Below, one piece after another: positions 1,533 to 47,333 of a DNA stretch of 57,799 nt. The DNA is from Bacteroidia bacterium (GTDB taxonomy: Bacteria > Bacteroidota > Bacteroidia > 2-12-FULL-35-15). Every line of letters starts with the position of its first letter. Within the stretch, counting starts at the first letter, position 1. Position numbers and translations under genes: made by a program. The stretch covers positions 1 to 57,799 of the forward strand of contig JBASCV010000259.1 in NCBI GenBank assembly GCA_049651825.1. Reading direction: 5' to 3'. The notes below the pieces were generated by a model. It was not told the origin of the DNA and made no database searches. It worked only from the letters and a program-made list of their open reading frames with translations.

Positions 1533-2597
1533 TTAGTGCAATATTTTAAACACCAATTCTTTCAGCAGTTCGCCTTCGGTGGCAGACCCTCTATCAACGC
1601 CTTTTGATTTTAAATCATATTCTCTAAGATAGCCAAATATGGCTTTTAGTTTATTGATAGAAAAGTTTTTGGCTGCACGTTCGTATTCGGCTACAAAAAA
1701 TGGATGAACCCCCAATTCGGATGCAACGTTTTTTGCCGATTTATCTTGTAAAAATTGATAGGTTAATAGTTTACAAAAATAGCTGTATAACGAAGAAACA
1801 GTCATTACCATTGGATTGTCTTTTTCGTTGGCAGCAAAGTAGTTAATGATACGATTTGCTTTTAACACTTCTTTTTTACCAATGGCTGTTTGTAATTCAA
1901 ATACATTGTAATCTTTACTAATACCAATGTTAGTTTGAACATGCTCAACCGTAATCTCTGATTTTGCGGGCAAATTAATCATTAGCTTATCCAACTCGTT
2001 GGATATTTTGCTAAGATTGGTCCCAAGGTATTCGGTTAGCAAAGCACTGGCTTTAGGGCTTATTTGATACTCTTTACCTTTTAAGTAATTATTTATCCAA
2101 TCAGGAACTTTGTTGTCGTATATTTTTTTCGATTCAAACAGTACAGCATTTTTGTCAATGGTTTTTGCTACTGTTGTTCGTTTATCAATGGTTTTGTATT
2201 TATAACAAATTACCAGAATGGTTGATTTTTGAGGATTTTCAATATAGGCCTCAAACGGATGTTTTGCTTTTTCTTTTGATTTGTCTTTTGTTTTTTCTCC
2301 GCCCTCCTTGTCTTTCCCTACTAAATCGCGTATGTTTTGAGCTTCTTTTACAATTATCACTTGGTATTCGCTCATCATCGGAAATCGTTTGGCGGCCCCA
2401 ATTACATCACTTGCTGTAATATCTCTACCATACAAAACGGTTTGGTTGAATTCTTTTTCTGATTCATCAAGCACATTTTGCTCAATATAATCAGAGATCA
2501 TATCAATGAAATAAGGCTCTTCGCCCATTAAAAAATAAACAGGACGATAGATTTTCTTTTTTAATTCAGAAATGATGTCGTTGAATTCCATGCTCAA
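1533..2597 (-). CDS. holA: DNA polymerase III subunit delta
   Basis: 354 aa. N-terminal PVYFLMGEEPYFID block and overall length and organisation match the HolA family. Confidence 0.85.
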   Translation of the reverse strand: MSMEFNDIISELKKKIYRPVYFLMGEEPYFIDMISDYIEQNVLDESEKEFNQTVLYGRDITASDVIGAAKRFPMMSEYQVIIVKEAQNIRDLVGKDKEGGEKTKDKSKEKAKHPFEAYIENPQKSTILVICYKYKTIDKRTTVAKTIDKNAVLFESKKIYDNKVPDWINNYLKGKEYQISPKASALLTEYLGTNLSKISNELDKLMINLPAKSEITVEHVQTNIGISKDYNVFELQTAIGKKEVLKANRIINYFAANEKDNPMVMTVSSLYSYFCKLLTYQFLQDKSAKNVASELGVHPFFVAEYERAAKNFSINKLKAIFGYLREYDLKSKGVDRGSATEGELLKELVFKILH

Positions 2598-2611
2598 TCA
2601 ATTAACGGTTG

Positions 2612-2650
2612 GCAATATTACAGTTTGCAAATTGCCAACTGTAATATTGC
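2612..2650. repeat. 39-bp near-perfect palindrome between the nucleosidase-like gene and holA
   Basis: 2612-2630 (gcaatattacagtttgcaa) pairs with 2632-2650 in 18 of 19 positions, centred on 2631. An alternative 9-bp hairpin, gttggcaat/attgccaac (2608-2616 / 2631-2639), overlaps it. Confidence 0.8.
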
Positions 2651-2659
2651 TAACTCTTT

Positions 2660-3433
2660 TTACTCAAACCTCAAATGTTTAACCGTTAAACCATTATTTA
2701 TAAGCTCATTCAATGAGTCAATGCCAATTTTTAAATGATCTTCAACAAAATTTTGCGTCACTTTTTTATCACTTTCAATTGTTTTAACTCCCTCAACAAT
2801 CATCGGTTGATCACTCACTAAAAGCAAAGCTCCAGTAGGTATTTGATTGTGAAATCCAGTGATAAAAATGGTAGCCGTTTCCATGTCGATTCCCATTACG
2901 CGAATTTTGCGTAAGTAGTCTTTAAATTCTTCATCGTGCTCCCAAACCCTCCTGTTGGTCGTATATACTGTTCCTGTCCAATAATCTTTATTGTGATTGC
3001 GTATAGTAGTAGAGATTGCCTTTTGCAAGCTAAACGCTGGCAATGCTGGCACCTCAGGCGGGAAATAGTCGTTTGAAGCACCTTCGCCACGTACTGCTGC
3101 AATTGGTAAAATCAAATCCCCCAATTCGTTTTTCTTTTTTAGTCCACCGCATTTTCCTAAAAACAATACTGCTTTTGGTTCAATGGCCGAAAGCAAATCC
3201 ATAATGGTTGCTGCGTTGGCGCTTCCCATGCTAAAGTTAATAATAGTAATGCCATTTGCTGTAGCATTTGGCATTGGCATATCTTGCCCGTCAATAGGCA
3301 CGCCATGCCAGTCGGCAAACATTTTTACATATTTACTAAAATTGGTAAGTAATATATATTTCCCGAATGCTTCTAGGGGAGTGCCAGTGTAGCGTGGCAA
3401 CCAGTTTTCTACAATTTCTTCTTTTGTTTTCAT
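2660..3433 (-). CDS. AMP nucleosidase-like nucleoside phosphorylase (PNP_UDP_1 superfamily, short form)
   Basis: 257 aa. Blocks GITIINFSMGSANAATIMDLL, FLGKCGGL and GIDMETATIF are typical of the phosphorylase/AMP-nucleosidase catalytic domain. Confidence 0.7.
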   Translation of the reverse strand: MKTKEEIVENWLPRYTGTPLEAFGKYILLTNFSKYVKMFADWHGVPIDGQDMPMPNATANGITIINFSMGSANAATIMDLLSAIEPKAVLFLGKCGGLKKKNELGDLILPIAAVRGEGASNDYFPPEVPALPAFSLQKAISTTIRNHNKDYWTGTVYTTNRRVWEHDEEFKDYLRKIRVMGIDMETATIFITGFHNQIPTGALLLVSDQPMIVEGVKTIESDKKVTQNFVEDHLKIGIDSLNELINNGLTVKHLRFE

Positions 3434-3714
3434 GGTAGGTTTAAATAGATGAACTTTTTTATTTTGTACAAAACGCAGTTCTAACTGCTAAGTTAGTAAT
3501 TAAACAGATATTGTTTGAAAAATTGTTTTTCACAAGAAACTATTAAAATTTCATTAGCAATTTTGTTATTGCAAACGCACAGTCTTCGACAGGCTCAGAC
3601 TGACCACGCACAAAGTCACATTGAGCTAGTAGAAATGTGAACGGTAGCAGGCATAACTATAGTTTTTTGAATAAAAATTGAATGTTTTTAACTATTTTTA
3701 CTTTTATGATTACC

Positions 3715-4155
3715 ATGCTTAATTTACCTGTTTATCAATTTAAGACTAAGGTAGAAGGTCAACGAACTTACATATTTGATACTATTCGCAAAAAATATTT
3801 GGTATTGACGCCTGAGGAATGGGTGCGTCAAAATTTTTTACAATATTTGATTCACGAAAAACAATTTCCTGCGTCACTTATTGCTATTGAAGCGGGATTG
3901 AAATACAACCAGTTGCAAAAACGATTGGATGTATTGGTATATGATAAGCAAGGTGCTCCGCATTTAATTGTAGAATGTAAAGCGCCCGAAATTAAAATAA
4001 CTCAAGAAGTTTTTGACCAAGTTGCTCGTTACAATTTTGTATTTAAAGCCAAATATTTGGTCGTTACAAATGGATTACAACATTTTTGTTGCGAAATGGA
4101 TTACAATGAAAATTCGTTTCGGTATATTGAACAAATACCTGTTTTTGGCGAGTAA
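3715..4155 (+). CDS. HsdR_N-like stand-alone PD-(D/E)XK domain protein
   Basis: LDVLVYD...HLIVECKAPE gives a D...E-x-K nuclease-fold motif, and LTPEEWVRQ is typical of the HSDR_N_2 family. The track ORF starts at 3682; the internal ATG at 3715 (MLNLPVYQF) fits the family N-terminus better. Confidence 0.65.
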   Translation: MLNLPVYQFKTKVEGQRTYIFDTIRKKYLVLTPEEWVRQNFLQYLIHEKQFPASLIAIEAGLKYNQLQKRLDVLVYDKQGAPHLIVECKAPEIKITQEVFDQVARYNFVFKAKYLVVTNGLQHFCCEMDYNENSFRYIEQIPVFGE

Positions 4156-4196: not shown

Positions 4197-5519
4197 ATGG
4201 AGTTAGAACAAAATAAACAGGAATTGAAAAAAGTGCTTACGCCACTTATGCTTTGGGGTTTGGGGGTTGGTTATGTTATTTCTGGGATGTATTTTGGTTG
4301 GAATCTTGGTTTAGAAAAGGGCGGCACCTTGGGCCTAGGTATTGCTGTGTTCTTTATTATGATTATGTATGTTACATTTTCGTTGTGCTATACGGAGCTT
4401 GCTTGCGCTATACCCAAAGCTGGCGGGGCTTTTGATTATACCACCAAAGCACTTGGTAAGCAATTTGGTTTTGTTGCGGGCATGGCGCAAATCATAGAGT
4501 TTGTGTTTGCTCCGCCTGCAATTGCATTTGGTATTGGAGCTTATTTTAATTTGCTTTTTCCTTCGTTGCCCATTATTGGCGTGGCTGTATTTTGTTATTT
4601 AATTTTTACGGCTTTAAATATTTTTGGTGTAAAAGCTTCAGCTTCTTTTGAGTTATTAATAACTATTATTGCAGTGGTGGAATTGCTTATTTTTTCGGGA
4701 TTTACGCTGCCACATTTTAAGTTCGAAAATTTGACTACAAATTCGTTTCCGAACGGTGTTGAAGGGGTATTCATGGCTATTCCATTTGCTATATGGTTCT
4801 TTCTTGGGCTCGAAGGGATTGCAAATGTGGCTGAAGAAACGATTAATCCACAAAAAAATATTACCATTGGTTTTGCAACGGCAATGATTACCTTGGTAAT
4901 ACTAGCAAGCCTTACTTTTTCTTCGGCAGTGGGTGTTGCTGGATGGGAAGCGGTTGTATATGATGCTTCCGGAAAAATTTCCGACTCGCCACTTCCTCTG
5001 GCTATTAAGCACATTCCAGCCATGAGCGATGTGTTTTTTCATTTGTTAGTGTGGATTGGTTTGTTTGGTTTTGTTGCCTCTTTTAATGGATTGTTGTTGG
5101 CTGCAGGTAGAGCAACCTATGAATTTGGAAAATCGGGCAATGCGCCTTCTTTGTTGGGTAAGGTTCATTCAAAATTTAATACTCCTGCACTGGCGCTTAT
5201 TTTTAATATGCTTATAGGTATCATCGCTTTGTTTTCGGGCAAAACCGGTGAAATAATTACCATTGCTACCTTTGGAGCATTGTCGCTTTATATTTTGGCA
5301 TCAGTATCGTATTTTGTACTAAAGATAAATGCGCCAGAATTGGAGAGGCCCTTTAAAGCCCCATTTTATCCACTATCGCCTGCATTGGCTTTGCTTATTG
5401 CCTTTGTTTCGCTTGTAGCAATGACTTATTATAACTCCCTATTAGCACTTATTTATTTTGGATTATTAGCAGCAGCATTTGTTGCTTATAAGCTTTTTTA
5501 TAAAAAATCAAATATATAA
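4197..5519 (+). CDS. eat: APC-family amino acid permease, ethanolamine permease-like
   Basis: 440 aa with about 12 hydrophobic segments. Motifs LWGLGVGYVISGMYFGWNLGL, YTELACAIPKAGGAFDY and EFVFAPPAIAFGIGAY resemble the ethanolamine permease (EAT) subfamily. Confidence 0.7.
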   Translation: MELEQNKQELKKVLTPLMLWGLGVGYVISGMYFGWNLGLEKGGTLGLGIAVFFIMIMYVTFSLCYTELACAIPKAGGAFDYTTKALGKQFGFVAGMAQIIEFVFAPPAIAFGIGAYFNLLFPSLPIIGVAVFCYLIFTALNIFGVKASASFELLITIIAVVELLIFSGFTLPHFKFENLTTNSFPNGVEGVFMAIPFAIWFFLGLEGIANVAEETINPQKNITIGFATAMITLVILASLTFSSAVGVAGWEAVVYDASGKISDSPLPLAIKHIPAMSDVFFHLLVWIGLFGFVASFNGLLLAAGRATYEFGKSGNAPSLLGKVHSKFNTPALALIFNMLIGIIALFSGKTGEIITIATFGALSLYILASVSYFVLKINAPELERPFKAPFYPLSPALALLIAFVSLVAMTYYNSLLALIYFGLLAAAFVAYKLFYKKSNI

Positions 5520-5543
5520 ATCCTTTATAATACCTATAAAGCC

Positions 5544-6890
5544 ATGACAGAAAAACAAATTATCGACTACGTAAAAAAACACCCTTCAGGAAAAGTAAAA
5601 CTCGCAATAACTGATATCGATGGAGTTTTAAGGGGAAAATACATTAGTGCCGAAAAATTTTTATCGGTGGTTTCGGGAAACATTGGCTTTTGTGATGTAG
5701 TGTTTGGTTGGGATTCAAACGATGTTGCTTATGATAATGTAAAGTTTACCGGCTGGCACACGGGATATCCCGATACTCCTGCACGCCTTGATTTATCAAC
5801 CTTTAGAAAAATTCCCTGGGAAAACGACATTCCGTTTTTTCTCTGCGAATTAATAGGCGAACCTGCCTATGTGTGCCCTCGTAATTTGTTGCAACAAGTG
5901 ATAGGTAGAGCCGAAAAAAGTGGCTATACGCCTTATTTTAGTCAGGAATTTGAATGGTTTAATTTTGAAGAAACGCCACAAAGTGTAAACGATAAAAAAC
6001 ACAGCGGTCTTCAACACTTAAGCCCTGGTATGTTTGGCTATTCAATACTGAGAAGCACTTTACGTAACGATTTTTTTACAGCTTTGTTCGACCAATTAGG
6101 CAAATTTGATATTCCGCTCGAAGGTTTGCATACCGAAACGGGCCCTGGTGTGTATGAAGCCGCAATTGCCTATTCTACCATTTTAAAATCGGCCGACCGT
6201 GCAGTGTTGTTTAAAACAGGAGTAAAAGAAATTGCCTATAAACATGGTATTATGGCTACGTTTATGGCAAAGTGGAGCGAAAATTTACCTGGTTGTAGTG
6301 GCCACGTACATCAAAGTTTGTGGGATAAAAGCAGTAAAACCAATTTGTTTTATTCCGAAAAAGACAAAAACAAAATGAGCGAAACGTTCAAAAGCTATAT
6401 TGCTGGGCAGTTGTATTGTTTGCCTTATATATTGCCAATGTTTGCTCCAACCATTAATTCATACAAACGTTTGGTAGAGGGTGCTTGGGCGCCAACAACC
6501 CTTACTTGGGCTGTAGATAACCGCACGGTTGCATTGCGTGCATTGCCTTTGGGAGCTAAATCGGCAAGGGTTGAAACCCGTGTTGTGGGCTCGGATTCAA
6601 ACCCTTATTTGGCTATGGCGGCTTGTTTGGCAAGTGGGTTGTATGGAATAAAAAATAAAATGAAACTTCAGGATGCTACCATTGGTAATGGTTATCGCGA
6701 TACATCGCATGGTGTGTTGCCATCTAACCTTTGGAATGCTACTCAGGAAATGAAAAATTCGGCTGTAGCAAAAGAATTGTTTGGCGAAAAATTTGTGGAA
6801 CATTACACCAAAACGCGCGAATGGGAATGGCGTCAGTATAGTAAAGTGGTTACTGATTGGGAATTGAAAAGGTATTTTGAGATTATTTAG
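5544..6890 (+). CDS. glutamine synthetase family protein (gamma-glutamyl-amine synthetase-like)
   Basis: 448 aa. It has an N-terminal beta-grasp-like region and a catalytic region (HTETGPGVYE, GCSGHVHQSLW, NSYKRL, RVETRV) typical of GS type I-like enzymes of the PuuA/GlnA4 kind. Confidence 0.8.
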   Translation: MTEKQIIDYVKKHPSGKVKLAITDIDGVLRGKYISAEKFLSVVSGNIGFCDVVFGWDSNDVAYDNVKFTGWHTGYPDTPARLDLSTFRKIPWENDIPFFLCELIGEPAYVCPRNLLQQVIGRAEKSGYTPYFSQEFEWFNFEETPQSVNDKKHSGLQHLSPGMFGYSILRSTLRNDFFTALFDQLGKFDIPLEGLHTETGPGVYEAAIAYSTILKSADRAVLFKTGVKEIAYKHGIMATFMAKWSENLPGCSGHVHQSLWDKSSKTNLFYSEKDKNKMSETFKSYIAGQLYCLPYILPMFAPTINSYKRLVEGAWAPTTLTWAVDNRTVALRALPLGAKSARVETRVVGSDSNPYLAMAACLASGLYGIKNKMKLQDATIGNGYRDTSHGVLPSNLWNATQEMKNSAVAKELFGEKFVEHYTKTREWEWRQYSKVVTDWELKRYFEII

Positions 6891-6926
6891 CACGTTTTGT
6901 TGAACAAAGTAACAATTTTGTTAAAA

Positions 6927-6946
6927 AATTCACTTTTTTGTGAATT
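6927..6946 (+). terminator. hairpin after the GS-like gene; possible terminator and/or operator in front of higB
   Basis: aattcac (6927-6933) pairs with gtgaatt (6940-6946) around a 6-T loop, followed by atttt. It sits 30 nt upstream of the higB ATG. Confidence 0.35.
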
Positions 6947-6976
6947 ATTTTGTATAATTGTACCCTACTTCGATAT

Positions 6977-7294
6977 ATGGATTTAGAATTTAATAGCACA
7001 GATCTTATAGGCCTCTATCAAGGAAAAAAGGTTAAGAACAAACTTTATAAGTCAAATCCTACACTTGTTAAACAATTCATTAAAACGATTAAGTTTTTAG
7101 AACAAGTGAAAAAAATTGAAGATTTGTTGCAATTAAAGGGATTGCATTACGAAAAGCTAACTAAAGACAGGGTTGGTCAAAGCTCTGTTAGAATAAATGA
7201 CCAGTACCGTTTAATTTTTATAGAAAATTATAATGAAGAAAATCCGCCAAAGGTTGTGCTGTTGCAAATAGAAGAAATAATAGATTATCACTGA
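6977..7294 (+). CDS. higB: HigB-like RelE-superfamily toxin (plasmid maintenance system killer protein family)
   Basis: C-terminal SVRINDQYRLIF...IEEIIDYH matches the HigB-like toxin signature (SIRINDQWRICF...DYH). The track ORF starts at 6950; the ATG at 6977 gives a typical length of about 105 aa. Confidence 0.8.
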   Translation: MDLEFNSTDLIGLYQGKKVKNKLYKSNPTLVKQFIKTIKFLEQVKKIEDLLQLKGLHYEKLTKDRVGQSSVRINDQYRLIFIENYNEENPPKVVLLQIEEIIDYH

Positions 7295-7301
7295 TTAAAG
7301 A

Positions 7302-8402
7302 ATGGAAAACATGACGATTAATTCAAAAAATATAGTTCCTGCTTATGCTATTCATCCTGGGGAAATGTTAAAGGATGAGGTGGATGCTCGTGGTATTAAA
7401 CAGAAAGATTTTGCAAAACTTATTGGCTATAATACAACGCAATTAAACGAAATTATTAGGGGGAAACGCGACTTTAACGCAGATTTTGCTTTGAAGATTG
7501 GAAAGGCTTTAAATATAGATCCTGCATTTTGGATGGGATTACAGGCGCAATATGATTTAGATAAGGCGAGAATTGACGAAAAAAATAAAGCTCGACTAGA
7601 AGCGATTGGGGTTTGGGAAATGATGAATAATTACATTGCAACTACGTATCTAAAAAAAACTGGTTGGATTAGCGGCAATCCTATTGAAGATATTCCTAAA
7701 ATAAAAAGCCTGTATAATGTAAGTTCTATTGAAGAGTTTCCAGCACTCTATGCTAATGGACACTTTCGTAAATCGACTAAACTAGAAATAGATGTATTGA
7801 ATTTAGTTGCTTGGACAAAAATTGTTGCCTACAAAGCAAACTATGTTGAAGTGAAAAAATTTAATCATTTTAATCAAGAAATTCTTATTGCAAAGTTGAA
7901 AGAAATATTAAAAGATAATAAAAAAACACTTTTTAAAGTACAATCATTACTGCAAGAATATGGAATAAAATTAATCATTGAAGATAGGCCAGATAAATGT
8001 CCAATTGATGCGTATTCATTTTGGAGTAATGGAAAACCATGTATTGGTATGACATTAAGGCATAAAAGGATTGATAACTTTGCATTTAATTTATTTCACG
8101 AATTAGGTCATGTTTTTTTACATTTAACTAATGACAATACTGTAGATTTTATTGATTATGAAAACAATAACCAAAAGTATAAAAACAGTATTGAAGAGCG
8201 ACAAGCAAATGATTTTGCTACCAACCAATTAATTGAAGCAGAAGCATGGAGTTTATTTAAAAGAAAAGAAACAAGTTTTACAGATTCCGTAATTAAACAA
8301 TTTGCTATACAACAGAATGTTCATCCTGCTGTTGTTATTGGTCGCTTGGGGCATGAGTTAAACTATTACCCTAAGACAGCAATTAAAAAGGAGTTGATGT
8401 AA
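7302..8402 (+). CDS. higA: HigA-type XRE HTH antitoxin fused to an ImmA/IrrE (M78) zinc metallopeptidase domain
   Basis: The N-terminus IHPGEMLKDEVDARGIKQKDFAKLIGYNTTQLNEIIRGKRDFNADFALKIGKALNIDPAFWMGLQAQYDL matches the HigA antidote signature. The C-terminal part carries FNLFHELGHVFLH, the HExxH motif of the ImmA/IrrE family. It starts 7 nt after the higB stop. Confidence 0.8.
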   Translation: MENMTINSKNIVPAYAIHPGEMLKDEVDARGIKQKDFAKLIGYNTTQLNEIIRGKRDFNADFALKIGKALNIDPAFWMGLQAQYDLDKARIDEKNKARLEAIGVWEMMNNYIATTYLKKTGWISGNPIEDIPKIKSLYNVSSIEEFPALYANGHFRKSTKLEIDVLNLVAWTKIVAYKANYVEVKKFNHFNQEILIAKLKEILKDNKKTLFKVQSLLQEYGIKLIIEDRPDKCPIDAYSFWSNGKPCIGMTLRHKRIDNFAFNLFHELGHVFLHLTNDNTVDFIDYENNNQKYKNSIEERQANDFATNQLIEAEAWSLFKRKETSFTDSVIKQFAIQQNVHPAVVIGRLGHELNYYPKTAIKKELM

Positions 8403-8508
8403 GTATGTTATTATCAATATATTTTGTTTCATTCTGTTAAAGTCTATTGTGGTTGAAAATGTGTCGAGGCAGTGGTTTTGAGTGATTAAGTATAAATTTT
8501 ATTTTTAG

Positions 8509-9432
8509 ATGACAAATAATACCATTGTTCAATTTACAGAACTCGTTGATTTTTTTCGTGAACGAAAACAAATCAATAATTCTACATTAGAACGGTTTGA
8601 TAAGGTCATATTTGAATTTAAAAGACTTAAATCAGGTTTGAAATGTGATTCTAAAAACAGCCCTGAAACGCTAAGTTCATTCATTAAGTTGATAGACGAT
8701 TATAAATTACTTGTTGAAAATGTATACCCCAAAAGATTAGAAGAAACAGAAAAACTATTGGATGAAAACTTGAATAAAATTGCTTTTTCAGCGTTAGAGT
8801 TAATGGACTATGATTATAGAGAAAATTCTCATTCAAATATTTTAAGGTATTTGTTTCATCATAAGTTGTGGAGCTCAGGAAGTGATGTGTTGTCAAGATT
8901 TATTGAAAAGGTAACAAGCGATATAGAACTTTCACAAAGTATACTAGATTCTAATTATGAAATTTATAGAGAGTTTTATACAAAAAATGGAAGAATAGAT
9001 TTGTTAATAGAAGATCACAAAAACAAATTTATTATCGTGATTGAAAATAAAATTTTGTCAAATGTTGCGATTAAAGAGTATTCGGAAGATAGAAGGGTGT
9101 TGGTAACTCAGTTGGATAATTATAGAAATTATGTTCAAGAAAACTATTCTAATTATAAAACTTGTTTTATATTATTGAGCCTTAATGAAGAAGAGGGTGT
9201 AGAAACCAAGCCGTTTATTAAAACAAATTATAAACTGGTATTGGAAATATTAGACATGCTGGAAACATCTAATAATATTGTTGTAGATTATAAAACACTT
9301 TTAAACTCCATCATTTATGATCAATATGGTAGATACGGAAAAGAATGGTTACTAGAGCTTCACAATAAAATAAAAAACAAAAAAAGAATTTCTCTCAATA
9401 CGCTTGAAATTGCTAACAAATACTTTCAATAA
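8509..9432 (+). CDS. PD-(D/E)XK nuclease family protein (PDDEXK_4-like) with an N-terminal extension of about 100 aa
   Basis: E-NSHSNILRYLF, then GRIDLLIEDHKNKFIIVIENKILS (D...E-x-K), then QLDNYRNY. This order is typical of the PDDEXK_4 family. Confidence 0.7.
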   Translation: MTNNTIVQFTELVDFFRERKQINNSTLERFDKVIFEFKRLKSGLKCDSKNSPETLSSFIKLIDDYKLLVENVYPKRLEETEKLLDENLNKIAFSALELMDYDYRENSHSNILRYLFHHKLWSSGSDVLSRFIEKVTSDIELSQSILDSNYEIYREFYTKNGRIDLLIEDHKNKFIIVIENKILSNVAIKEYSEDRRVLVTQLDNYRNYVQENYSNYKTCFILLSLNEEEGVETKPFIKTNYKLVLEILDMLETSNNIVVDYKTLLNSIIYDQYGRYGKEWLLELHNKIKNKKRISLNTLEIANKYFQ

Positions 9433-9434
9433 CT

Positions 9435-10079
9435 ATGAAAAATAAAAAAATAGTTCAGTTTGACGAATTAGACCTAAAATGTTTGAACGAAATGCCATTA
9501 ATTATAAATGTAATGTCTACTACGGGAAACAAGGTAGCCAAACTTTTGTCGTCTTTTTACGTAGACATGAACGAATTTTTAAAAGATACTTTAAATACAA
9601 ATTCTAATTTAGAAATTGGTATTAAGTCTTATGAATTTTTGGTTTTACCGTTCATCTCACAAGATATTTTGAAAAAAATCAAAATCGAATCTTTTGATTC
9701 TGTTTTTCAGATTGAAAGTGGAATTCATTTAATTAAAAAATCACAAGATGGATTGACAAAAGAATTTTGGTTGCGCTTTGGTTATTTTTGTTGTGTACCG
9801 GAAGAGGACGAAGATGTAGATAATTATTTTTATTTTTCTATTGAAAATGAAAATAGCCAAGAGAAAATTGGTGGTATTATTAACGATTTGTTTTTTTATG
9901 AGAAAATTAAAAATAAATTGAACGATTATACTGTTGTTGTTCTACATCCTGAAAAGGAAAAAGATAGTATTGAGCAGATATATTTGCAAATCGAAGATTT
10001 TTCCATTAAAAAAATTCAAGATAGTTATTGTGTTTTTAAAGAGTCAATTTTAACTCCATTCCTTGAAAAACTAGAATAA
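9435..10079 (+). CDS. hypothetical protein, no recognisable family
   Basis: A 214-aa uninterrupted ORF in very AT-rich DNA, starting 2 nt after the stop of the nuclease gene, which suggests translational coupling. Confidence 0.6.
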   Translation: MKNKKIVQFDELDLKCLNEMPLIINVMSTTGNKVAKLLSSFYVDMNEFLKDTLNTNSNLEIGIKSYEFLVLPFISQDILKKIKIESFDSVFQIESGIHLIKKSQDGLTKEFWLRFGYFCCVPEEDEDVDNYFYFSIENENSQEKIGGIINDLFFYEKIKNKLNDYTVVVLHPEKEKDSIEQIYLQIEDFSIKKIQDSYCVFKESILTPFLEKLE

Positions 10080-10100
10080 TTAAAATTTTAGCGTAAGGTA

Positions 10101-10877
10101 ATGAAATCAGAATTAATTACGTTTGATAATATAAGTGGCTTGTTTTGGTATGCACAAGAACAGGAAGACGGTAGCGATTCTCCCATGTCTTTAAAAGAGT
10201 TTAAGGATTCTATTTGGAGAGATGCCCCCTTTGCAAGATTATCGCAAGCGGCTCCTCTTTCATATAACAATGCTTTTGAAGACCAATTAACACTTGATTG
10301 TGTTCAAATTGAAAATGAAGAAGAGTCAACTTTAAAGTTGATTTTTAAAGAAGATGGAACGATAGAGGGGCGTAATGAATTTCCTTTATATGAAGGCGAT
10401 ATAGTTGAATATTTTAGAGGAGATTATAGAATTACATCTTCAAAGATTTTTATTTGGGGGGTATTAACTGATGATATTGAGTTTGAAAATAATTTACAGT
10501 CAATATATATTGAACTTAAACAGCTTGTCAATAATGATGAAGGAGATTATAATGAAGAAGATGCCATAGAGTTTATTCGAGAAAATATTTCTTACGAGTT
10601 GGATGATAGATTAACGGATAACGAAATTCTAATGCTTGTTAACTGGGCGGAAGATTATATTGACATGGAATTTGAAAAAAACAAAAAAAGAAAACCATTC
10701 GTAGCTTTTGAGCTTAGAACAATAGATCAAAATGAAATAAATAAATATGTTTTAGAAAGAGCAACTGAAAATAATATCAAAATTAATATTGATGAACTAT
10801 ACGATTTGTTATATGCAGAGTTGATGTATCGTAAAGATATTGGATTCGTTGGCGAAGATGATATTGTTAATAACTAG
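10101..10877 (+). CDS. hypothetical, strongly acidic protein, no recognisable family
   Basis: A 258-aa ORF starting 21 nt after the preceding stop. My hand count gives about 60 Asp+Glu against about 25 Lys+Arg. Confidence 0.6.
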   Translation: MKSELITFDNISGLFWYAQEQEDGSDSPMSLKEFKDSIWRDAPFARLSQAAPLSYNNAFEDQLTLDCVQIENEEESTLKLIFKEDGTIEGRNEFPLYEGDIVEYFRGDYRITSSKIFIWGVLTDDIEFENNLQSIYIELKQLVNNDEGDYNEEDAIEFIRENISYELDDRLTDNEILMLVNWAEDYIDMEFEKNKKRKPFVAFELRTIDQNEINKYVLERATENNIKINIDELYDLLYAELMYRKDIGFVGEDDIVNN

Positions 10878-10916
10878 ATGGTTTATTTGTAAACATTAAC
10901 CTTTTTTACATTGATA

Positions 10917-11321
10917 ATGGCTCCTGACATCAAAGAATACAACACCAACCAAACAGCAATCGACAAAAAAATTTGCGATGCTCTATCAAAAATTATTGAA
11001 AGCGAACTTGCTGAAGCAGAAGCTAAGGTATGGCACGCACATCCCGTTTGGTTTATAAATGGCAATCCCATTGTTGGATATAGCAAACAAAAACAAGGAA
11101 TACGTTTAATGTTTTGGAGTGGTGCATCTTTCGATGAAGACAAATTAAATGTACAAGGAAAAAAATTCAAGGATGCATCTCTGTTTTATACAGATGCTAA
11201 AGAAATTAATAGTGTGGATTTGATTCGCTGGCTCAAAAAAGCAAGAGAAATTCAGTGGGACTATAAAAATATAATTAAAAGGAAAGGGCGCTTAGAGCTT
11301 TTGAGTGAGAGTAATAAATAG
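10917..11321 (+). CDS. DUF1801 (YdhG-like) domain protein
   Basis: VWHAHPVWFINGNPIVGYSKQKQGIRLMFWSG and the overall size are typical of DUF1801. ATG at 10917; the track uses the TTG at 10911. Confidence 0.65.
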   Translation: MAPDIKEYNTNQTAIDKKICDALSKIIESELAEAEAKVWHAHPVWFINGNPIVGYSKQKQGIRLMFWSGASFDEDKLNVQGKKFKDASLFYTDAKEINSVDLIRWLKKAREIQWDYKNIIKRKGRLELLSESNK

Positions 11322-18440: not shown

Positions 18441-19220
18441 TTAGTGGTGAATGTGCTCTACAGAAAACATGTCGGCATAATTATCGGCAACTGTTTTTGC
18501 ATTTGCGCCTGGCATATGTATTGTGCTTAATGTTGAAAAGCTAATATTGGTAGGTGTTGTAAACCACTCTAATAAATCAGCTTTTAAATGTATTTCAGGT
18601 GTTGCCGTTGCAGAAACTGTTGCTACTTCCGAATTAAACGAGGGTGAAACTGTTTTTAATGTTGAATTAACTCCCGAAAAACCTCCCACGTGATACATTA
18701 GCATCCCATCCATTGCTGTTGATTGAGGCGATGTTCCTTCAAATTTGGTCATAATATAACCGCTGCTCCAGCTCCAAAACATCCCATTTGCTGGGTCTAG
18801 CGCTCCCGTTTGAGCACCCGATACATTGCGAATGCTATCTACACCAATTGTAAATTGTATGCCAATATAATCACCAACAGGCACATTGTTTAACACAAAT
18901 TCTAATGATTCCATATCTTCTGCTTCTAGCAAATGATAACTTTCTGTTTCTGTATATACAGATAAATCACTTCGTGTTAATTTAATATTTGATATGTAAT
19001 AATTGAATTTACTAACGTTAAATGTATCGTTATTTGCATTCACATACATTGACGTGTTTAATACCAAGGCACTATCGCCTACCATGTTTTCAAAATGCAA
19101 TGCTACCGAACCTGTTGTTGCTGTTGGAGTGGGTTCTTCTTTGGGGTCTTTTTTACATGAAGAAATAACTGTGATTAAGCTGAATAGAGCTATAGCTGAA
19201 AATAATTTTATAGTTTTCAT
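18441..19220 (-). CDS. MbnP-like lipoprotein
   Basis: Lipoprotein signal (LITVISSC). The blocks VALHFENMVGDSALVLN, FNYYISNIKL, GDYIGIQFTIGVD and GMFWSWSSGYIMTKFEG match my recollection of the MbnP family profile. The protein ends in HIHH. Confidence 0.55.
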   Translation of the reverse strand: MKTIKLFSAIALFSLITVISSCKKDPKEEPTPTATTGSVALHFENMVGDSALVLNTSMYVNANNDTFNVSKFNYYISNIKLTRSDLSVYTETESYHLLEAEDMESLEFVLNNVPVGDYIGIQFTIGVDSIRNVSGAQTGALDPANGMFWSWSSGYIMTKFEGTSPQSTAMDGMLMYHVGGFSGVNSTLKTVSPSFNSEVATVSATATPEIHLKADLLEWFTTPTNISFSTLSTIHMPGANAKTVADNYADMFSVEHIHH

Positions 19221-19297
19221 TGTTTTCTGTTTTATAGATAAATAAAAATAAGTGTATAGGTTCTTTTATTAAAAGAGCCATTTACCAGTAATAAAAA

Positions 19298-19672
19298 TTA
19301 AACAACACTTATTGGTGGAGGGTGAAAAACAGAAAGTAAATAGGTTGAATAAGGTTTTAAAAAAGTTGAAAAATAGTGTTCTTTTTTTGCAATTAAGTGT
19401 TGTTCTGTTACGCCTAAAAGATATTCGTTAAAAAACTGATTTTCGGATTTTTCTTTAACAGTATTTTGTTGTTTTTCTTTTTTATCTTCTTTCTGGAGCT
19501 GTTTTTTTAAGTGACATTTACCATTGCAGCGCATTTTAGGTTTTGTTTTGTTTTCGCAAAACTTGGCAATAATCAATCCTTTGTTTAACTCATAATTAAT
19601 AACAACAGCAAGCTTGCTTGCCGATTGAAACAAAATAACTGAAGCTAATACTATGGCGATAAATGGTTTCAA
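19298..19672 (-). CDS. small N-terminally anchored protein with a C-x8-C-x3-C-H motif
   Basis: 124 aa. It starts at a TTG that is the only start codon available after the upstream in-frame stop. It has an N-terminal TM helix, then FCENKTKPKMRCNGKCHLKKQL, then a Lys/Glu-rich linker. Confidence 0.5.
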   Translation of the reverse strand: MKPFIAIVLASVILFQSASKLAVVINYELNKGLIIAKFCENKTKPKMRCNGKCHLKKQLQKEDKKEKQQNTVKEKSENQFFNEYLLGVTEQHLIAKKEHYFSTFLKPYSTYLLSVFHPPPISVV

Positions 19673-19796
19673 TAGAAACGTAATTTGTCTACAAAGTTAA
19701 AAACAAACACACGTTTTTGCTAATAGCATTGAGCTATTATTTTTATTATGCTATTATTTCAATAAAAATGCTTGAAAAAACGTGCTAAAAAAAGTG

Positions 19797-19804
19797 TATT
19801 TTTG
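19797..19804 (+). promoter_or_regulatory. candidate -7 promoter box for the tRNA gene
   Basis: TATTTTTG (TAnnTTTG) lies 21 nt upstream of the tRNA 5' end. A TTG at 19772-19774 sits at about the expected -33 spacing. Confidence 0.4.
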
Positions 19805-19824
19805 TATTTCTCAAGTAAAATATT

Positions 19825-19896
19825 GGCATCGTAGTTCAATGGATAGAATAGAAGTTTCCTAAACTTTTGATACAGGTTCGATTCCTGTCGAAGCCA
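19825..19896 (+). tRNA. tRNA-Arg (anticodon CCT)
   Basis: Hand-folded cloverleaf: acceptor GGCATCG/CGAAGCC, D-arm GTTC-AATGGATA-GAAT, anticodon arm GAAGT-TTCCTAA-ACTTT, variable loop TGAT, T-arm ACAGG-TTCGATT-CCTGT, discriminator A. No CCA is encoded. Confidence 0.85.
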
Positions 19897-19993
19897 CTTT
19901 TTTCGATGATTTAAATAGCCAGACTAATTTTGCCACTTTAATTCTTATTCTTAACTTCGGGTAATTAAGTTTTTAATTTTTAATATACATTCT

Positions 19994-20857
19994 ATGAAAG
20001 GAATAATTTTAGCTGGAGGTTCGGGAACCCGCTTACATCCCTTAACACTCGCTGTAAGCAAGCAGTTAATGCCCGTTTACGATAAACCAATGATATATTA
20101 TCCGCTATCGGTATTGATGATGGCAGGAATTTCTGAAATATTAATCATTTCTACACCACATGATTTGCCTCATTTTGAGCGTTTGTTGGGTGATGGTAAA
20201 AATTTAGGATGTAAATTTTCTTACGCTGTGCAAGAAGTACCTAACGGACTTGCTCAAGCTTTTGTTATTGGCGAAAAATTTATTGGCAACGATAAAGTTG
20301 CCCTCGTATTAGGCGATAATATTTTTTATGGTGCAGGCCTTGGTCGTTTGTTACAACAACACCAAAATCCTGAAGGAGGAGTGGTGTTTGCATATCACGT
20401 TTCTGACCCTGAACGCTATGGTGTTGTTGAATTTGATGCAGAAGGCAATGCGGTTTCTATTGAAGAAAAACCAAAACAACCTAAATCAAATTATGCAGTT
20501 CCTGGTTTGTATTTTTATGATAACAGTGTTATTCAAATTGCTAAAAATCTCAAACCTAGTGCCAGAGGAGAGTATGAAATTACAGATGTAAATAAACATT
20601 ACTTACAACAAGGAAAATTAAAAGTAGGTATTATGGATAGAGGCACTGCCTGGTTAGATACGGGTACATTTGCATCCTTGATGCAGGCCGGTCAGTTTGT
20701 TCAAGTAATTGAAGAGCGCCAAGGTCTTCGCATTGGTTGTATTGAAGAAGTTGCCTATCGCATGAATTTTATCAATAAAGAACAGCTAAAAACACTTGCT
20801 ACTCCATTAATGAAAAGCGGTTATGGCGATTATCTGATGAAACTTGCTGTTAGTTAG
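19994..20857 (+). CDS. rfbA: glucose-1-phosphate thymidylyltransferase
   Basis: 287 aa with the [18 protein letters not shown] nucleotidyltransferase motif and the conserved [11 protein letters not shown] and LGDNIFYG blocks. Confidence 0.9.
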
Positions 20858-43224: not shown

Positions 43225-44241
43225 CTATTTAATTATCACTTTATTGATTGATTTGTTGTTTTTGTCATCAAAAACAACAATTGTATAAATACCTTTAGCT
43301 AAAGCTGTAATATCTAGCGCTGTGCCAGCTAAATTACTTTTAGAAACAAATGACTTTATTTCTTGACCCACTAAATTGTAGAATACTGCTTTAGAAATTA
43401 CTGTACTCGATTGTATTTTTACAAACTCTGATGAAGGATTTGGGAAAATAGAAAATGCAAATGAATTATTTGCATCATTGATTCCATTTGTAAAGCAATC
43501 GCAAGTGTGTGTGCCTAAACCTGTAAAAGTGTTTACTGGTAACGAATCCCACTGAACTGAAGCATTGAACGATTCAAATGCTGGGTTTGTTGTTACACCA
43601 GATGTAATAGATGGTTTACGTTTTAAGGTTTTATCTTGAGACCAATATTGTTTGTAGTATGGTCCGCTTACGTTCGCATCATAACCAACTGGCATGCTTG
43701 AATAAGGAGCCAAAATTGTCCACCCACCTGTAGGAGAGAATGTGCCACTTGAGTTTGCTGGTCTTTCTCCTATACAAGCAAAAATATCTATTTTAGTCCA
43801 AGTTCCATTTACATTTTTTTCCAATGATAACGCATCATCTCCATTAAAGCACATTACACGGCTTTGACCTGTGCTTCCGCAACCAGGACATAACAATGTG
43901 TCTGCAACTGCTTGTAAATTTACATCAATTGGTGCACTTTGGCCCGTTCCATTAGGGTCTGTTAAGTTCAATGCAATTACATAAGCTTGGTAGGGTGCAA
44001 GTGTAATGTTTGTAGGCAATTGCATCTCACCTTCAACTGCCGTAAAAGTAGGATTTCCATTATCATGTCTTAAAATACGGTAGTTTGCAAGGCTAATTGG
44101 TGAAGAAGATGCGTTGTAAATTTCTAATGCTTTGTTGTTGTTTGTTCCTTCAACGTATTCAGAAATAATCAAGTCATTGCATTGTGCTTGCACTGCAACG
44201 TAAGATGATAAGGCAATTACAGATAGTAAAATTTTTTTCAT
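43225..44241 (-). CDS. lamin-tail-domain (LTD) protein with a T9SS type-A C-terminal sorting domain
   Basis: Signal peptide MKKILLSVIALSSYVAVQAQ from the ATG at 44241, then LIISEYVEGTNNNKALEIYNASSSPISLANYRI (LTD-like). The C-terminus FPNPSSEFVKIQ...GIYTIVVFDDKNNKSINKVIIK is Por_Secre_tail-like. Confidence 0.7.
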   Translation of the reverse strand: MKKILLSVIALSSYVAVQAQCNDLIISEYVEGTNNNKALEIYNASSSPISLANYRILRHDNGNPTFTAVEGEMQLPTNITLAPYQAYVIALNLTDPNGTGQSAPIDVNLQAVADTLLCPGCGSTGQSRVMCFNGDDALSLEKNVNGTWTKIDIFACIGERPANSSGTFSPTGGWTILAPYSSMPVGYDANVSGPYYKQYWSQDKTLKRKPSITSGVTTNPAFESFNASVQWDSLPVNTFTGLGTHTCDCFTNGINDANNSFAFSIFPNPSSEFVKIQSSTVISKAVFYNLVGQEIKSFVSKSNLAGTALDITALAKGIYTIVVFDDKNNKSINKVIIK

Positions 44242-44476
44242 TGGTTTTGAGGTATAAAAATTAGTGATTAAAAATGTGCTTTTTATTGTTTTAATTTTCG
44301 CTTGCAAAGGTACTTACTATTTTTTGTATGGCAATAATGAGTTTTGAAGAAATAATGAACAGGTAATGAAATGATAACAAATTAATAATGAACGACTTGT
44401 GTTTGATTGTTGGGATTCAAATTAACACCTTCATCATCAAATGGTTTTTTTGAAGAGCTCGTAGGGATTTTAATAT

Positions 44477-44860
44477 CTAAAGTCCGTTTCTTACAATAAT
44501 TAGTTGTTCTTTAATTTTTAATAATTTACTCACAACTTGTTCGTTGTTTTTTCTTTCGCTTTTAAAACTAACTTTTACCTCTTTTTTATTGCCTTTCAAA
44601 TACTTTTTAGCACCTTCTAATGTTAATCCTTGCGTTTTTACAAGGTTGTATATGCTTTTGATCTTAGCAATATCATCGGCTGTATATAGTCTATTGCCTT
44701 TGCTGTTTTTTTTTGGCTGTAATATCTCAAATTCTTTTTCCCAAAAACGTATGAGTGATGTGTTTACATCAAACATCTCGGCTACTTCGCCAATAGAATA
44801 GTATAATTTGGCAGTATTGTTTTCTTTGTGTGGCAAAATAGTAAGTTTATTTGCGTTCAA
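44477..44860 (-). CDS. MerR family transcriptional regulator
   Basis: YYSIGEVAEMFDVNTSLIRFWEKEF....KKNSKGNRLYTADDI is a MerR-type HTH. The gene overlaps the upstream gene by 14 nt. Confidence 0.8.
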   Translation of the reverse strand: MNANKLTILPHKENNTAKLYYSIGEVAEMFDVNTSLIRFWEKEFEILQPKKNSKGNRLYTADDIAKIKSIYNLVKTQGLTLEGAKKYLKGNKKEVKVSFKSERKNNEQVVSKLLKIKEQLIIVRNGL

Positions 44861-46124
44861 AATTACTTAAATCTGGTAAATATTCTTTTTTTCTTTTGTG
44901 CTCGTGCTTATAAATAGCTTGCCCTACTGCCGTAAAAAATGGAAAACCAATGGTTTTGTATTCATATTTGCCATCGTTTATAATTTCGTTTTCATTTACG
45001 TAAATTACTGCCGATAGCATAAATTCGATTCCTTTTTTAGGATTGATAATGTATGCACAATCGCTTAAATCGCCATAGGATTGACCAACAATATTAAATA
45101 TTCGTATGCTATCGTTTTCTATTTTTTTATGGTAGGTGCCGTACATTAAATATTTTTTGTAACTGTCTTCAAATTCTTTTGGGTTGTAGCTTGGATGTGT
45201 TGATTCTCTTGGATACATCGATAAATAATTGTACAAAAACGTGTAATCTTCTTCTTTTAAATCAAAACGTTTTTCTTTCTCTACCGATTCAGGAAATAGA
45301 AGTGTTTTTAAAATATCGTTGATATCTTGTAATGATAAATAATTCATCTGTGTATAATCTTTAGGCTCAGATATTAGTTTATTTTTTTTATCAATATAAG
45401 CTTTGCCTTTTTTTACAGTTCCGTATGGGTTTTTTAATTCAATTTTACTTATTTGCATAGGTTGCCTGTAAATAAGTTTATTGTTTGAATTATAAAACTC
45501 AATAGGGTTAGTGTATTTATTTTGTTCGGTATTGCAAGCGGCATCAAATCGGTGGGTGATGCGTGCGTTTGTATAACCTTTATTTACAAGTTGTTGGTAA
45601 ATATATTCTTGTCCTAAAAATTCATAAATTCTGCTGTAAGCATCATTGTCACTTACAAGCAACATGCGCTTGATATAATTCGCCACAGAGGGTTTCCCGT
45701 TTTCAGTTGTTGGATCGGCAATTGTTTTTTTTTGGCAACCAAATGCACTATCAGTAACCATTATTGAGTTTTTATCAAGTTCGGCAATGTTCAGTTTGTT
45801 TAGTTTCTCAAGTGCAAGTGCCGAACACGGCAGTTTTACAAGACTTGCTGCATAAAAATAATTTTGAGCATTTAATTGATAACTATACTGCTTAAATGAT
45901 GGGATATTGTTTTTATCTCTATTAATTTGGGTGTAAATAATTTGAACTTGATATTTTTTTTGATTCTCAAGTATGAATTTAAATTCGGGGGAGTAACTTT
46001 TTATTATGTTTTCAATTAACTTGTTTTCATTCTCTTGTGAGTTGCTTGTTTGGCAATACACTGAAGTGTTTTCAATCAATAAAAAAAGAAATGTTATTAT
46101 ATGAATAATTGATTTCACTGACAA
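44847..46124 (-). CDS. class A beta-lactamase-related serine hydrolase
   Basis: 425 aa with a signal peptide, an S-x-x-K motif (AASLVKLP) and an SDN motif (LLVSDNDAY). Confidence 0.65.
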   Translation of the reverse strand: MSVKSIIHIITFLFLLIENTSVYCQTSNSQENENKLIENIIKSYSPEFKFILENQKKYQVQIIYTQINRDKNNIPSFKQYSYQLNAQNYFYAASLVKLPCSALALEKLNKLNIAELDKNSIMVTDSAFGCQKKTIADPTTENGKPSVANYIKRMLLVSDNDAYSRIYEFLGQEYIYQQLVNKGYTNARITHRFDAACNTEQNKYTNPIEFYNSNNKLIYRQPMQISKIELKNPYGTVKKGKAYIDKKNKLISEPKDYTQMNYLSLQDINDILKTLLFPESVEKEKRFDLKEEDYTFLYNYLSMYPRESTHPSYNPKEFEDSYKKYLMYGTYHKKIENDSIRIFNIVGQSYGDLSDCAYIINPKKGIEFMLSAVIYVNENEIINDGKYEYKTIGFPFFTAVGQAIYKHEHKRKKEYLPDLSNFERK

Positions 46125-46154
46125 TTTTTTGATGCGTAAATTGTTTTAATAATT

Positions 46155-47333
46155 TTATTTTTTTATAAAATACATTAAGTTTGATTCCCCCACATGATAT
46201 TTATATCCTATTCCAAACGGTAGTGGTTTTATGGTTACTAAGCTATCTGTGTAAGCTTGTTTTAAATCGTTTTGCAACGAATTTGGAAACAATGAAATTG
46301 CACCGTTGTATTTTCCATATAAGGTAGCTGTCCAAATAGAATCATTAAAATACTTGTAAGGAATGCCCGAATCATCTTCAAGTAAATACTTGCTGTTGTT
46401 GAGTAGCAATGTTCGTATTGTAGAAAAATAATCTTTGTGCATCAGGTAAGAAGCCGATTTTAAATAGGTTGTGGCATCTTTATGTTTGTTTATGTAATTA
46501 GTAAATGTTGTGTTTTTTTCAAGATGTGTATTGTCAAGGTTTACTGAAAAATAATAAACTCTTTTTAATTGATTGGAAGCATTTGTAAATTGAATTTCAA
46601 TGCCTTTGTTTTTATTTGTACTTTTTTGTTTTTCCTCAAATGATTGATGTACTTCAATGTTTCCATCTTCGTTTAACGATATTGGCTTAATATCTACAAT
46701 AGCGTTTCCTGTTCGTTTTATAAAAAATAGCAACAAGTGAACGGTGCCATTTAAATCTTCATTTTTAAAGTCGGTCGACATACTTTTGGTTCTAAAAAAA
46801 CTGAAATTTAATATAGCATGAAGCGATTTTTTTATCTTGTTGAAATACTGTGCAACAGAATCGCTGCGTCCGCCAGTATAAAATTCGGGCAACGAACCTT
46901 CGGGCTCTAGCCCCACCAATATGTAGTTTTCTTTTTCAGGAAAAAAGGTAAAAACATTCATAAAATCAGCCCCCGAAAAAGGATAAAAAACAGTAGTTGA
47001 GGTTTGTCCATTTAACTCATTTTTACTCCACTCTTTCATTTTATTAATTTTTGTAGAATCAATCTTATGCCAATTTTTTTCAATTGTTTCTGAATATTCT
47101 TTCCAATATTTTTTATTGTTTAAAGCGGTATCCAATCCACACTCGTTATCAATTGGTATGCCCGCAATGTGGCGCGCTACATTATCATATAATTTATGAA
47201 TAGTAGGTTTTATAGGTTCTTTTGCAATACTATCAACAACAGGAGTATCGGCTTTACTAACAGTTGTTTCGGCTTGTTTGCCTTCATTGCAGGATATAAA
47301 AACAATAAGTATTAAAAACGTTAGGATTCGCAT
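46155..47333 (-). CDS. hypothetical lipoprotein
   Basis: 392 aa with lipoprotein signal MRILTFLILIVFISC. No recognisable family. Confidence 0.5.
   Translation of the reverse strand: MRILTFLILIVFISCNEGKQAETTVSKADTPVVDSIAKEPIKPTIHKLYDNVARHIAGIPIDNECGLDTALNNKKYWKEYSETIEKNWHKIDSTKINKMKEWSKNELNGQTSTTVFYPFSGADFMNVFTFFPEKENYILVGLEPEGSLPEFYTGGRSDSVAQYFNKIKKSLHAILNFSFFRTKSMSTDFKNEDLNGTVHLLLFFIKRTGNAIVDIKPISLNEDGNIEVHQSFEEKQKSTNKNKGIEIQFTNASNQLKRVYYFSVNLDNTHLEKNTTFTNYINKHKDATTYLKSASYLMHKDYFSTIRTLLLNNSKYLLEDDSGIPYKYFNDSIWTATLYGKYNGAISLFPNSLQNDLKQAYTDSLVTIKPLPFGIGYKYHVGESNLMYFIKK

Follow-up and report, generated by a model that had tools for sequence, protein, structure and literature searches.

Putative two-gene nuclease cassette and a separate acidic two-domain gene in an AT-rich islet of a Bacteroidia bacterium

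We analyzed a 57,799-nucleotide stretch of DNA (hereafter the window) from a Bacteroidia bacterium (contig JBASCV010000259.1 of GenBank assembly GCA_049651825.1). It contains three consecutive open reading frames (ORFs), here called genes A, B and C, which an initial annotation had proposed as one unit headed by a PD-(D/E)XK-type nuclease. The comparisons described below indicate that A and B form a conserved cassette of a predicted nuclease and a partner protein, and that C is a separate module. The ORF list confirmed the sizes of the three genes and their spacing as first annotated, with 2 nucleotides (nt) between A and B and 21 nt between B and C; sizes are in amino acids (aa) and pI is the isoelectric point:

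8509-9432, + strand: gene A, 307 aa
9435-10079, + strand: gene B, 214 aa, pI 4.76
10101-10877, + strand: gene C, 258 aa

Each of the three genes has full-length homologues (33-57% identity) on independent contigs, and for this reason we consider them real genes rather than chance ORFs. The GC content is 0.27-0.31 over positions 7000-11000, compared with about 0.35-0.39 in the flanks, where the genes are housekeeping-like (permease, glutamine-synthetase-like, DUF1801, transglutaminase-like, YidC). Because the dip is confined to this region and the flanks are of this kind, the block is a small AT-rich islet and not a piece of a large island. Neither a tRNA nor direct repeats nor Rfam elements were found at its borders. 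A search of the block 6950-10877, which takes in the two genes that precede A, detected no terminator-like site, not even between A, B and C, and a sigma-70 promoter scan did not rise above the shuffled background. The Bacteroidota -7 motif TAnnTTTG is absent upstream of A in 10/10 loci with the A-B pair and is uninformative.

The A protein matches the Pfam family PF14281 (PDDEXK_4); residues 96-267 align with positions 4-176 of the 183 in the profile (50.3 bits, cutoff 22.3, E=3.7e-13). The intact nuclease core described in the initial annotation was borne out, with E105-N-S-H-S-N110, D164 in GRIDLLIE and E179-N-K181 in VIENK as its motifs. Residues E105, N106, H108, N110, R154, E155, G161, R162, D164, D169, E179, N180, K181, T200 and Q201, the catalytic ones among them, are invariant in 21 aligned family members. 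The N-terminal extension noted before the domain measures about 95 residues and is far less conserved than the core; the C-terminal tail is conserved. A is thus predicted to be a PDDEXK_4-family nuclease with intact catalytic residues. The function of this family was given as 'Unknown' in a 2012 catalogue of PD-(D/E)XK proteins (PMC3424549). A profile search of PDB sequences with A and a search of the literature found no solved structure, no characterized member and no later paper on the family.

Relatives were sought with a word-indexed search of 5.8 billion proteins, and A loci were collected from the contigs of A relatives together with a scan of species-representative genomes. The protein search returned 25 relatives of A, two of B and one of C. 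A B-like gene, with homology established by BLASTP and hidden Markov models (HMMs), lies directly 3' of every A-like gene examined (10/10 independent loci). From the stop codon of A to the start of B there is either a 2-nt gap or an overlap of 4-29 nt in every locus. The two genes are preserved as follows (IS, insertion sequence):

Window: A and B intact
L001/L002: A frameshifted, B intact
L007/L008: A intact, B interrupted by an IS element
L009, L010/L011, L012/L013, L014, L019, L020, L021: A and B intact

The pairwise identities of A and B correlate across the eight intact loci (Mantel r=0.75, p=0.004), and the cassette has a GC content of 0.26-0.30 against 0.31-0.38 for its locus in all of the loci measured (8/8). 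Co-divergence and low GC are the pattern expected of a unit that is inherited and transferred whole. Literature on PDDEXK_4/PF14281, on PDC-S26 and on PDDEXK proteins in Bacteroidota defence contained no description of an A-B-type pair. We therefore regard A-B, as far as sequence comparison can tell, as a conserved two-gene cassette that was not previously described. The family is rare, being held by one of 185,579 species-representative genomes, and all A-B records with organism names are metagenome-assembled genomes of Bacteroidia/Bacteroidetes. Plasmids contained no relatives of A, B or C, phages none of C, and viral contigs none of B or C. The lack of relatives in phages and plasmids argues against a phage or plasmid origin; it is silent on function.

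Two loci carry damaged copies. In L001 the frameshift in A lies outside any homopolymer run, and B is intact. In L007 an IS3-family element cuts B at about residue 125, while A is full-length and retains its catalytic residues:

L007:9297-10624: IS3-family element with HTH_Tnp_1 and rve ORFs and 33-nt terminal inverted repeats; the contig ends 9 nt past the right repeat

Decay of this kind in both loci is suggestive of the rapid turnover that is often seen in defence genes.

PADLOC contains no system with the A-B-C architecture, as the initial annotation had supposed, and the single match of A in this database is a partial one to PDC-S26. This is a candidate single-gene defence family of PADLOC-DB v2 with a PDDEXK_4-type domain. 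Four PDC-S26 profiles were matched (best E=7.9e-19), with residues 87-265 of A corresponding to positions 27-198 of 397. The nuclease domain is common to A and PDC-S26, and both occur in defence islands. However, PDC-S26 is one protein of about 350-415 aa with an N-terminal nuclease and a long C-terminal region, whereas A has 307 aa, carries an N-terminal extension and is always accompanied by the separate partner B. The match does not span the full length of PDC-S26, and B gives no PADLOC match at E<=1. In the papers searched, PDC-S26 was found solely as a PADLOC annotation, with no experimental test. A second comparison is with Shedu, a single-gene system whose protein SduA is a PD-(D/E)XK nuclease of the DUF4263 type that carries a regulatory or sensor domain at its N-terminus. 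A common logic is conceivable here, in that a non-catalytic N-terminal region before the PD-(D/E)XK domain could gate activity. Yet A belongs to PF14281 and not to PF14082, it matches neither SduA in PADLOC nor PF14082 in Pfam, and it always has a tightly coupled second gene beside it.

Neither B nor C has a significant match in Pfam, NCBIfam, PADLOC or PHROGs, in agreement with their first description as proteins of no recognizable family. A Matrix_Borna match of B in Pfam reached 21.5 bits, below the cutoff of 27.3, and was dismissed as chance. The AlphaFold2 model of B, computed from a 3-sequence alignment, is moderately confident (predicted local distance difference test, pLDDT, 75.5; predicted template modelling score, pTM, 0.74) and shows a long helix at the N-terminus, an antiparallel sheet and another helix at the C-terminus. 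Foldseek returned nothing significant for this model, with template modelling (TM) scores of 0.34 or lower throughout; the best PDB entry had E=0.095 and TM 0.24, the best BFVD entry E=0.02 and TM 0.26. Resemblances to CesT-type chaperones and START domains ranked low (TM <0.3) and were not taken as evidence, and a profile search of PDB sequences with B gave no match. Provisionally, the modelled fold of B seems to be one without a known match. The protein is most conserved over its first ~40 residues, is mildly acidic in all loci (pI 4.7-5.9) and has no detectable DNA-binding domain.

The genes around the A-B pair are listed below (HTH, helix-turn-helix; R-M, restriction-modification; TA, toxin-antitoxin):

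L014: A-B directly after a type I restriction R subunit, before which lie three unscreened ORFs of HsdM/HsdS-like size
L009: A-B upstream of an HTH gene, a GmrSD-like gene and a type IIG R-M gene
L020: A-B beside a retron-type reverse transcriptase, ATPases and a WYL protein
L021: A-B beside a WYL protein
L001: A-B after a ParE-like TA pair
Window: A-B after a PD-lambda-2-like pair
L010, L012, L019: A-B among housekeeping genes

Recognized defence genes or regulators thus adjoin A-B in 5/10 loci (L014, L009, L020, L021 and the window), and a ParE-like toxin does so in a sixth. The defence-like surroundings pointed out in the initial annotation are therefore found both in the window and at roughly half of the related loci. 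Integrase or transposase genes do not accompany the pair in any consistent way. Over these ten loci, the neighbours in about half of them, the patchy distribution, the atypical GC content and the pseudogenization fit a cassette of the defence or defence/TA type.

Some of these features would also suit a plain TA module, with A as toxin and B as antitoxin, that stabilizes mobile DNA and has no dedicated anti-phage role. The cassette is small, tightly spaced, AT-rich and patchily distributed, B is mildly acidic in all loci, and TA-like genes are often adjacent. However, an essential antitoxin should not be lost, and in L007 B is truncated beside an intact A. This single metagenomic observation weakly argues against B as an essential antitoxin, and it tilts the balance slightly toward B as an activator, sensor or specificity partner, or toward an A protein that is harmless until triggered. 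Furthermore, B is large for an antitoxin and has no recognizable means of binding DNA, and half of the loci have R-M, retron or WYL genes or the PD-lambda-2-like pair next to the cassette. Together, these results indicate that a plain TA module is unlikely, with the reservation that TA and defence roles are not mutually exclusive.

The two genes upstream of A in the window correspond to the putative TA/protease switch that had been reported directly before the three genes in an AT-rich insert; their position and the AT-rich setting are as reported. The pair, a putative regulatory site and the spacer that separates the pair from A are as follows:

6950-7294, + strand: HigB/RelE-like small protein, 114 aa (Pfam PF05015, PHROG 3066)
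7302-8402, + strand: fusion of an Xre-type HTH and an M78 (ImmA/IrrE) peptidase, 366 aa (PADLOC, Pfam, NCBIfam)
6912-6961, no strand: imperfect inverted repeat with 22-nt arms (77% complementary) and a 6-nt spacer, overlapping the annotated TTG start of the HigB-like gene
8403-8508, + strand: spacer upstream of A, 106 nt, with no terminator-like site, inverted repeat or exact TAnnTTTG

The HigB-like protein matches PF05015 barely over the cutoff (27.5 bits, cutoff 27, E=4.3e-6) and PHROG 3066, 'toxin of TA system' (E=4.8e-11); it has no PADLOC PD-Lambda-2_A match at E<=1. The true start of its gene may be a downstream ATG (M20) and not the annotated TTG. The HTH-M78 protein matches PADLOC PD-Lambda-2_B over profile positions 53-381 of 402 (E=3.2e-42), Pfam HTH_3 and Peptidase_M78, NCBIfam HigA (E=1e-16) and, weakly, PADLOC capP (E=1.3e-6). 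The inverted repeat may be an operator for this protein.

Three proteins make up PD-lambda-2 of E. coli, of which the first is HigB-like, the second a fusion of Xre-HTH and peptidase, and the third P4-antitoxin-like; the fusion is toxic alone and is neutralized by the HigB-like protein, and the third protein is required for defence (Vassallo et al. 2022, PMC9519451). The upstream pair appears to share the domain organization of PD-lambda-2A and B, and its second gene is a strong fit to the component-B profile. The third position differs, since it holds the A-B cassette instead of a P4-antitoxin-like protein. It is conceivable that the five genes 6950-10877 form one PD-lambda-2-type system, in which A-B, possibly with C, would be the effector that replaces PD-lambda-2C behind the HigB-like/HTH-M78 switch. 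The strong PD-Lambda-2_B match, together with the need for a third gene in E. coli (PMC9519451), is in favour of this proposal, as are the common strand of the five genes with no terminator-like site, the possible operator at 6912-6961 and the related M78 peptidase/HTH regulators in PADLOC, to which the weak capP match points. On the other hand, A, B and C give no PD-Lambda-2_C match, the HigB-like protein gives none to PD-Lambda-2_A, and the 106-nt spacer separates the pair from A. In addition, the pair is found in 0/9 of the other A-B loci, which indicates that A-B is independent of it. A single five-gene system is accordingly rather improbable.

Another explanation is that A-B is an accessory of DNA repair or recombination, or a mobile-element nuclease with a helper, and has no immune role. 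PD-(D/E)XK nucleases have many roles, the function of PDDEXK_4 is given as 'Unknown' in the catalogue (PMC3424549), and three loci have housekeeping neighbours only. The extreme patchiness, with a single carrier among the 185,579 species-representative genomes, and the atypical GC content of every locus measured speak against such a role. The same holds for the pseudogenization, the defence neighbours, the lack of a consistent integrase or transposase and the absence from the phage and plasmid collections. We consider this explanation very unlikely.

The position that C occupies in the window is empty or filled by an unrelated gene in the nine other A-B loci, and HMM searches found no C-family domain in any of these (9/9). 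The genes found after B are:

L001:3336-4199, + strand (also L002:2436-3299): 287 aa, DnaE-fragment-like
L014:8634-9470: 278 aa, 4 nt past B, at the end of the type I R-M operon
L020: 218-aa protein, unrelated to C
L021: 85-aa protein, unrelated to C

Residues 5-77 of the 287-aa protein match the DnaE (DNA polymerase III alpha) profile at about positions 255-400, and there are DNA-polymerase matches in PHROGs; a truncated replicative-polymerase fragment within a defence-type cassette is odd. C was compared with this third gene of L001 and is unrelated to it. The 278-aa protein of L014 has no family match and contains a stretch, 'ELIGIELKD', that recalls a PD-(D/E)XK motif.

When the C alignment was used in an exhaustive HMMER search, 54 matches were obtained, and these pointed to a fusion of two modules:

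10101-10541, + strand: N-terminal domain of C (aa 1-147), mostly beta in a low-confidence model
10542-10877, + strand: C-terminal domain of C (aa 148-258) with the stop codon, very acidic, mostly helical in a low-confidence model

The N-module (~aa 12-148) also stands alone in proteins of 128-156 aa, which are mostly basic. The C-module (~aa 150-260) also stands alone in very acidic proteins of 106-124 aa, some with a tandem duplication. In the window C has a pI of 4.1 and a net charge of -35, so that a role as an acidic inhibitor or mimic would be in keeping with its charge. Taken separately, the modules match nothing in Pfam, NCBIfam or PDB sequences. The AlphaFold2 model of C (pLDDT 33, 2-sequence alignment) was unusable, and a relationship of B to the C domains was rejected by hhalign profile comparison.

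Four full-length C-type genes could be placed, and each of them lies directly downstream of one or more defence-type nuclease or helicase genes:

Window: C behind PDDEXK_4 and B, 21-nt gap
L003-6: C-type gene behind AbiU/AIPR and a 191-aa gene, 94-nt gap
L022/23: C-type gene behind a ZacB-like PLD nuclease and an SNF2 helicase, 4-nt overlap
L024: C-type gene behind a DrmD-like SNF2 helicase fragment, 68-nt gap

HMM searches found no A or B at the other C-family locus groups L003-6, L015-18 and L022; at L024 neither was present in the gene list, five of whose proteins were compared with A and B by BLASTP. The genes of L003 lie at 279-725, 780-2582, 2584-3159, 3254-4051 and 4638-7319. A stand-alone C N-domain gene (148 aa, HMM E=1.2e-15) is found on one side of AbiU/AIPR; on the other side come the 191-aa gene and the full-length C-type gene, then a GajB-like UvrD helicase. 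The N-domain family is thereby present twice around a single Abi gene. The 191-aa gene was compared with B and is unrelated. L022:1261-6903 is an Azaca-like cassette of a 368-aa protein, a ZacB-like PLD protein (564 aa) and a ZacC/DrmD-like SNF2 helicase (654 aa), which the C-type gene ends with its 4-nt overlap. Directly downstream, at L022:7147-7819, there is a PDC-S22-like gene split in two ORFs (118 and 97 aa).

Distant stand-alone relatives of the C-terminal domain (26-29% identity; L015-18) occur in conserved housekeeping surroundings:

L015:2096-2428 and L017:1172-1507 (also in L016 and L018): small proteins (about 110 aa) that are very acidic, in conserved synteny

Their neighbours, read from ORF translations, are an LpxL-like acyltransferase, a family-2 glycosyltransferase and ribonucleotide reductase, and the small acidic proteins themselves are an unannotated family that is apparently housekeeping-linked. 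The idea that C arose from a fused two-gene pair was not supported in the few loci available. The stand-alone N-domain gene of L003 adjoins AIPR and not a C-domain gene, and the stand-alone C-domain genes of L015-18 have no N-domain neighbour.

WYL/BrxR-type regulators are found beside many different defence systems. The C family resembles them in that it also adjoins mechanistically unrelated systems (PDDEXK_4 with B, AbiU/AIPR, PLD with SNF2). It differs in having no DNA-binding or other recognizable domain, in its strong acidity, in its position, which is always downstream of a nuclease or helicase gene, and in being a fusion of domains that also occur separately.

With regard to the co-occurrence of the three genes outside this genome, the A-B pair recurs (10/10 loci), whereas the A-B-C trio does not (0/9), and the single unit of the initial annotation has to be given up. 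An obligate three-gene anti-phage system of nuclease effector, sensor or adaptor and acidic inhibitor, which the tight one-strand packing with no terminator in the window and the strongly acidic C protein might suggest, is largely refuted by this absent co-occurrence and hence most improbable, given also that C relatives occur behind unrelated defence genes without A or B and that profile comparison shows no relationship between B and C.

Outside the islet, the window has further AT-rich stretches at 19001-20000 (GC 0.29) and 44001-47000 (GC 0.30-0.31), compared with about 0.35 elsewhere; these may be other acquired segments. The sole tRNA of the window, tRNA-Arg CCT (19825-19897), lies inside the first of them.

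We conclude, with a probability of roughly 0.6, that 6950-10877 is a small, horizontally acquired islet of the defence type composed of the upstream pair, the A-B cassette and a separate C module. The first module would be the HigB-like protein and the Xre-HTH/M78-peptidase fusion, which are like the first two PD-lambda-2 genes. The second module, A-B, would be self-contained, and the conserved 2-nt gap or overlap suggests that its genes are translationally coupled. A and B would be made together and would form a complex, probably via the highly conserved N-terminal helix of B, which would either keep the nuclease inactive or confer specificity for a trigger or target. Phage infection or the entry of foreign DNA would then cause the nuclease to cut DNA, which could be direct restriction of the invader or killing of the cell (abortive infection). 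C would stand outside the cassette as a third module. The fact that members of its family are repeatedly found immediately behind nuclease or helicase defence genes of different mechanism suggests that C either is a portable accessory that modulates, inhibits or senses, or resides in defence islands as an independent single gene.

Several points weigh against this interpretation. Support for a defence role comes from the neighbours of A-B at only 10 loci, and the cassettes of L010, L012 and L019 are flanked by housekeeping genes. The A-B complex and the regulatory role of B are suggested only by gene coupling and co-divergence, and the unmatched fold of B is provisional because the model rests on so shallow an alignment. 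As for C, its C-terminal domain is not defence-specific, since stand-alone relatives occur in housekeeping surroundings. Moreover, C could act with A-B in this genome, as it lies on the same strand, 21 nt from B and with no terminator in between.

A bolder version of the islet interpretation combines two claims, and we regard the combination as doubtful. A-B would constitute a new anti-phage system of two components that is apparently limited to Bacteroidota, and C would be a portable, strongly acidic two-domain add-on to nuclease or helicase immune systems of unrelated mechanism. On this speculative account the PDDEXK_4 nuclease would be controlled by a partner of a fold not seen before, a claim that we hold just as tentatively. 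C might be a DNA-mimic brake on the nuclease, or a decoy or guard that senses phage anti-restriction proteins. It is likewise a possibility, and a slender one, that C belongs to a shared accessory layer of bacterial immunity that is tied to no single system.

Judged by their sequences, A-B appears to be an undescribed yet conventional-looking nuclease cassette, and C a member of an uncharacterized two-domain acidic family. Three features are novel: the families are rare, the modelled fold of B is unmatched, and C behaves like a portable gene. This novelty is limited by the many candidate defence cassettes that are already catalogued, such as the PDC series of PADLOC. One more nuclease candidate supported by its neighbourhood is unlikely to surprise specialists, and the functional claims rest on few gene neighbourhoods. 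To our knowledge, experimental screens for defence systems have covered Bacteroidota poorly. Should A-B protect against phage, it would add a system from this phylum and a partner protein whose fold matches nothing solved. It would also provide the first function for PDDEXK_4, still 'Unknown' in the 2012 catalogue (PMC3424549). The C family may matter more, because its recurrence behind unrelated nuclease and helicase systems suggests a reusable regulatory or counter-counter-defence part. This idea is directly testable, since one family could be assayed beside three kinds of neighbour.

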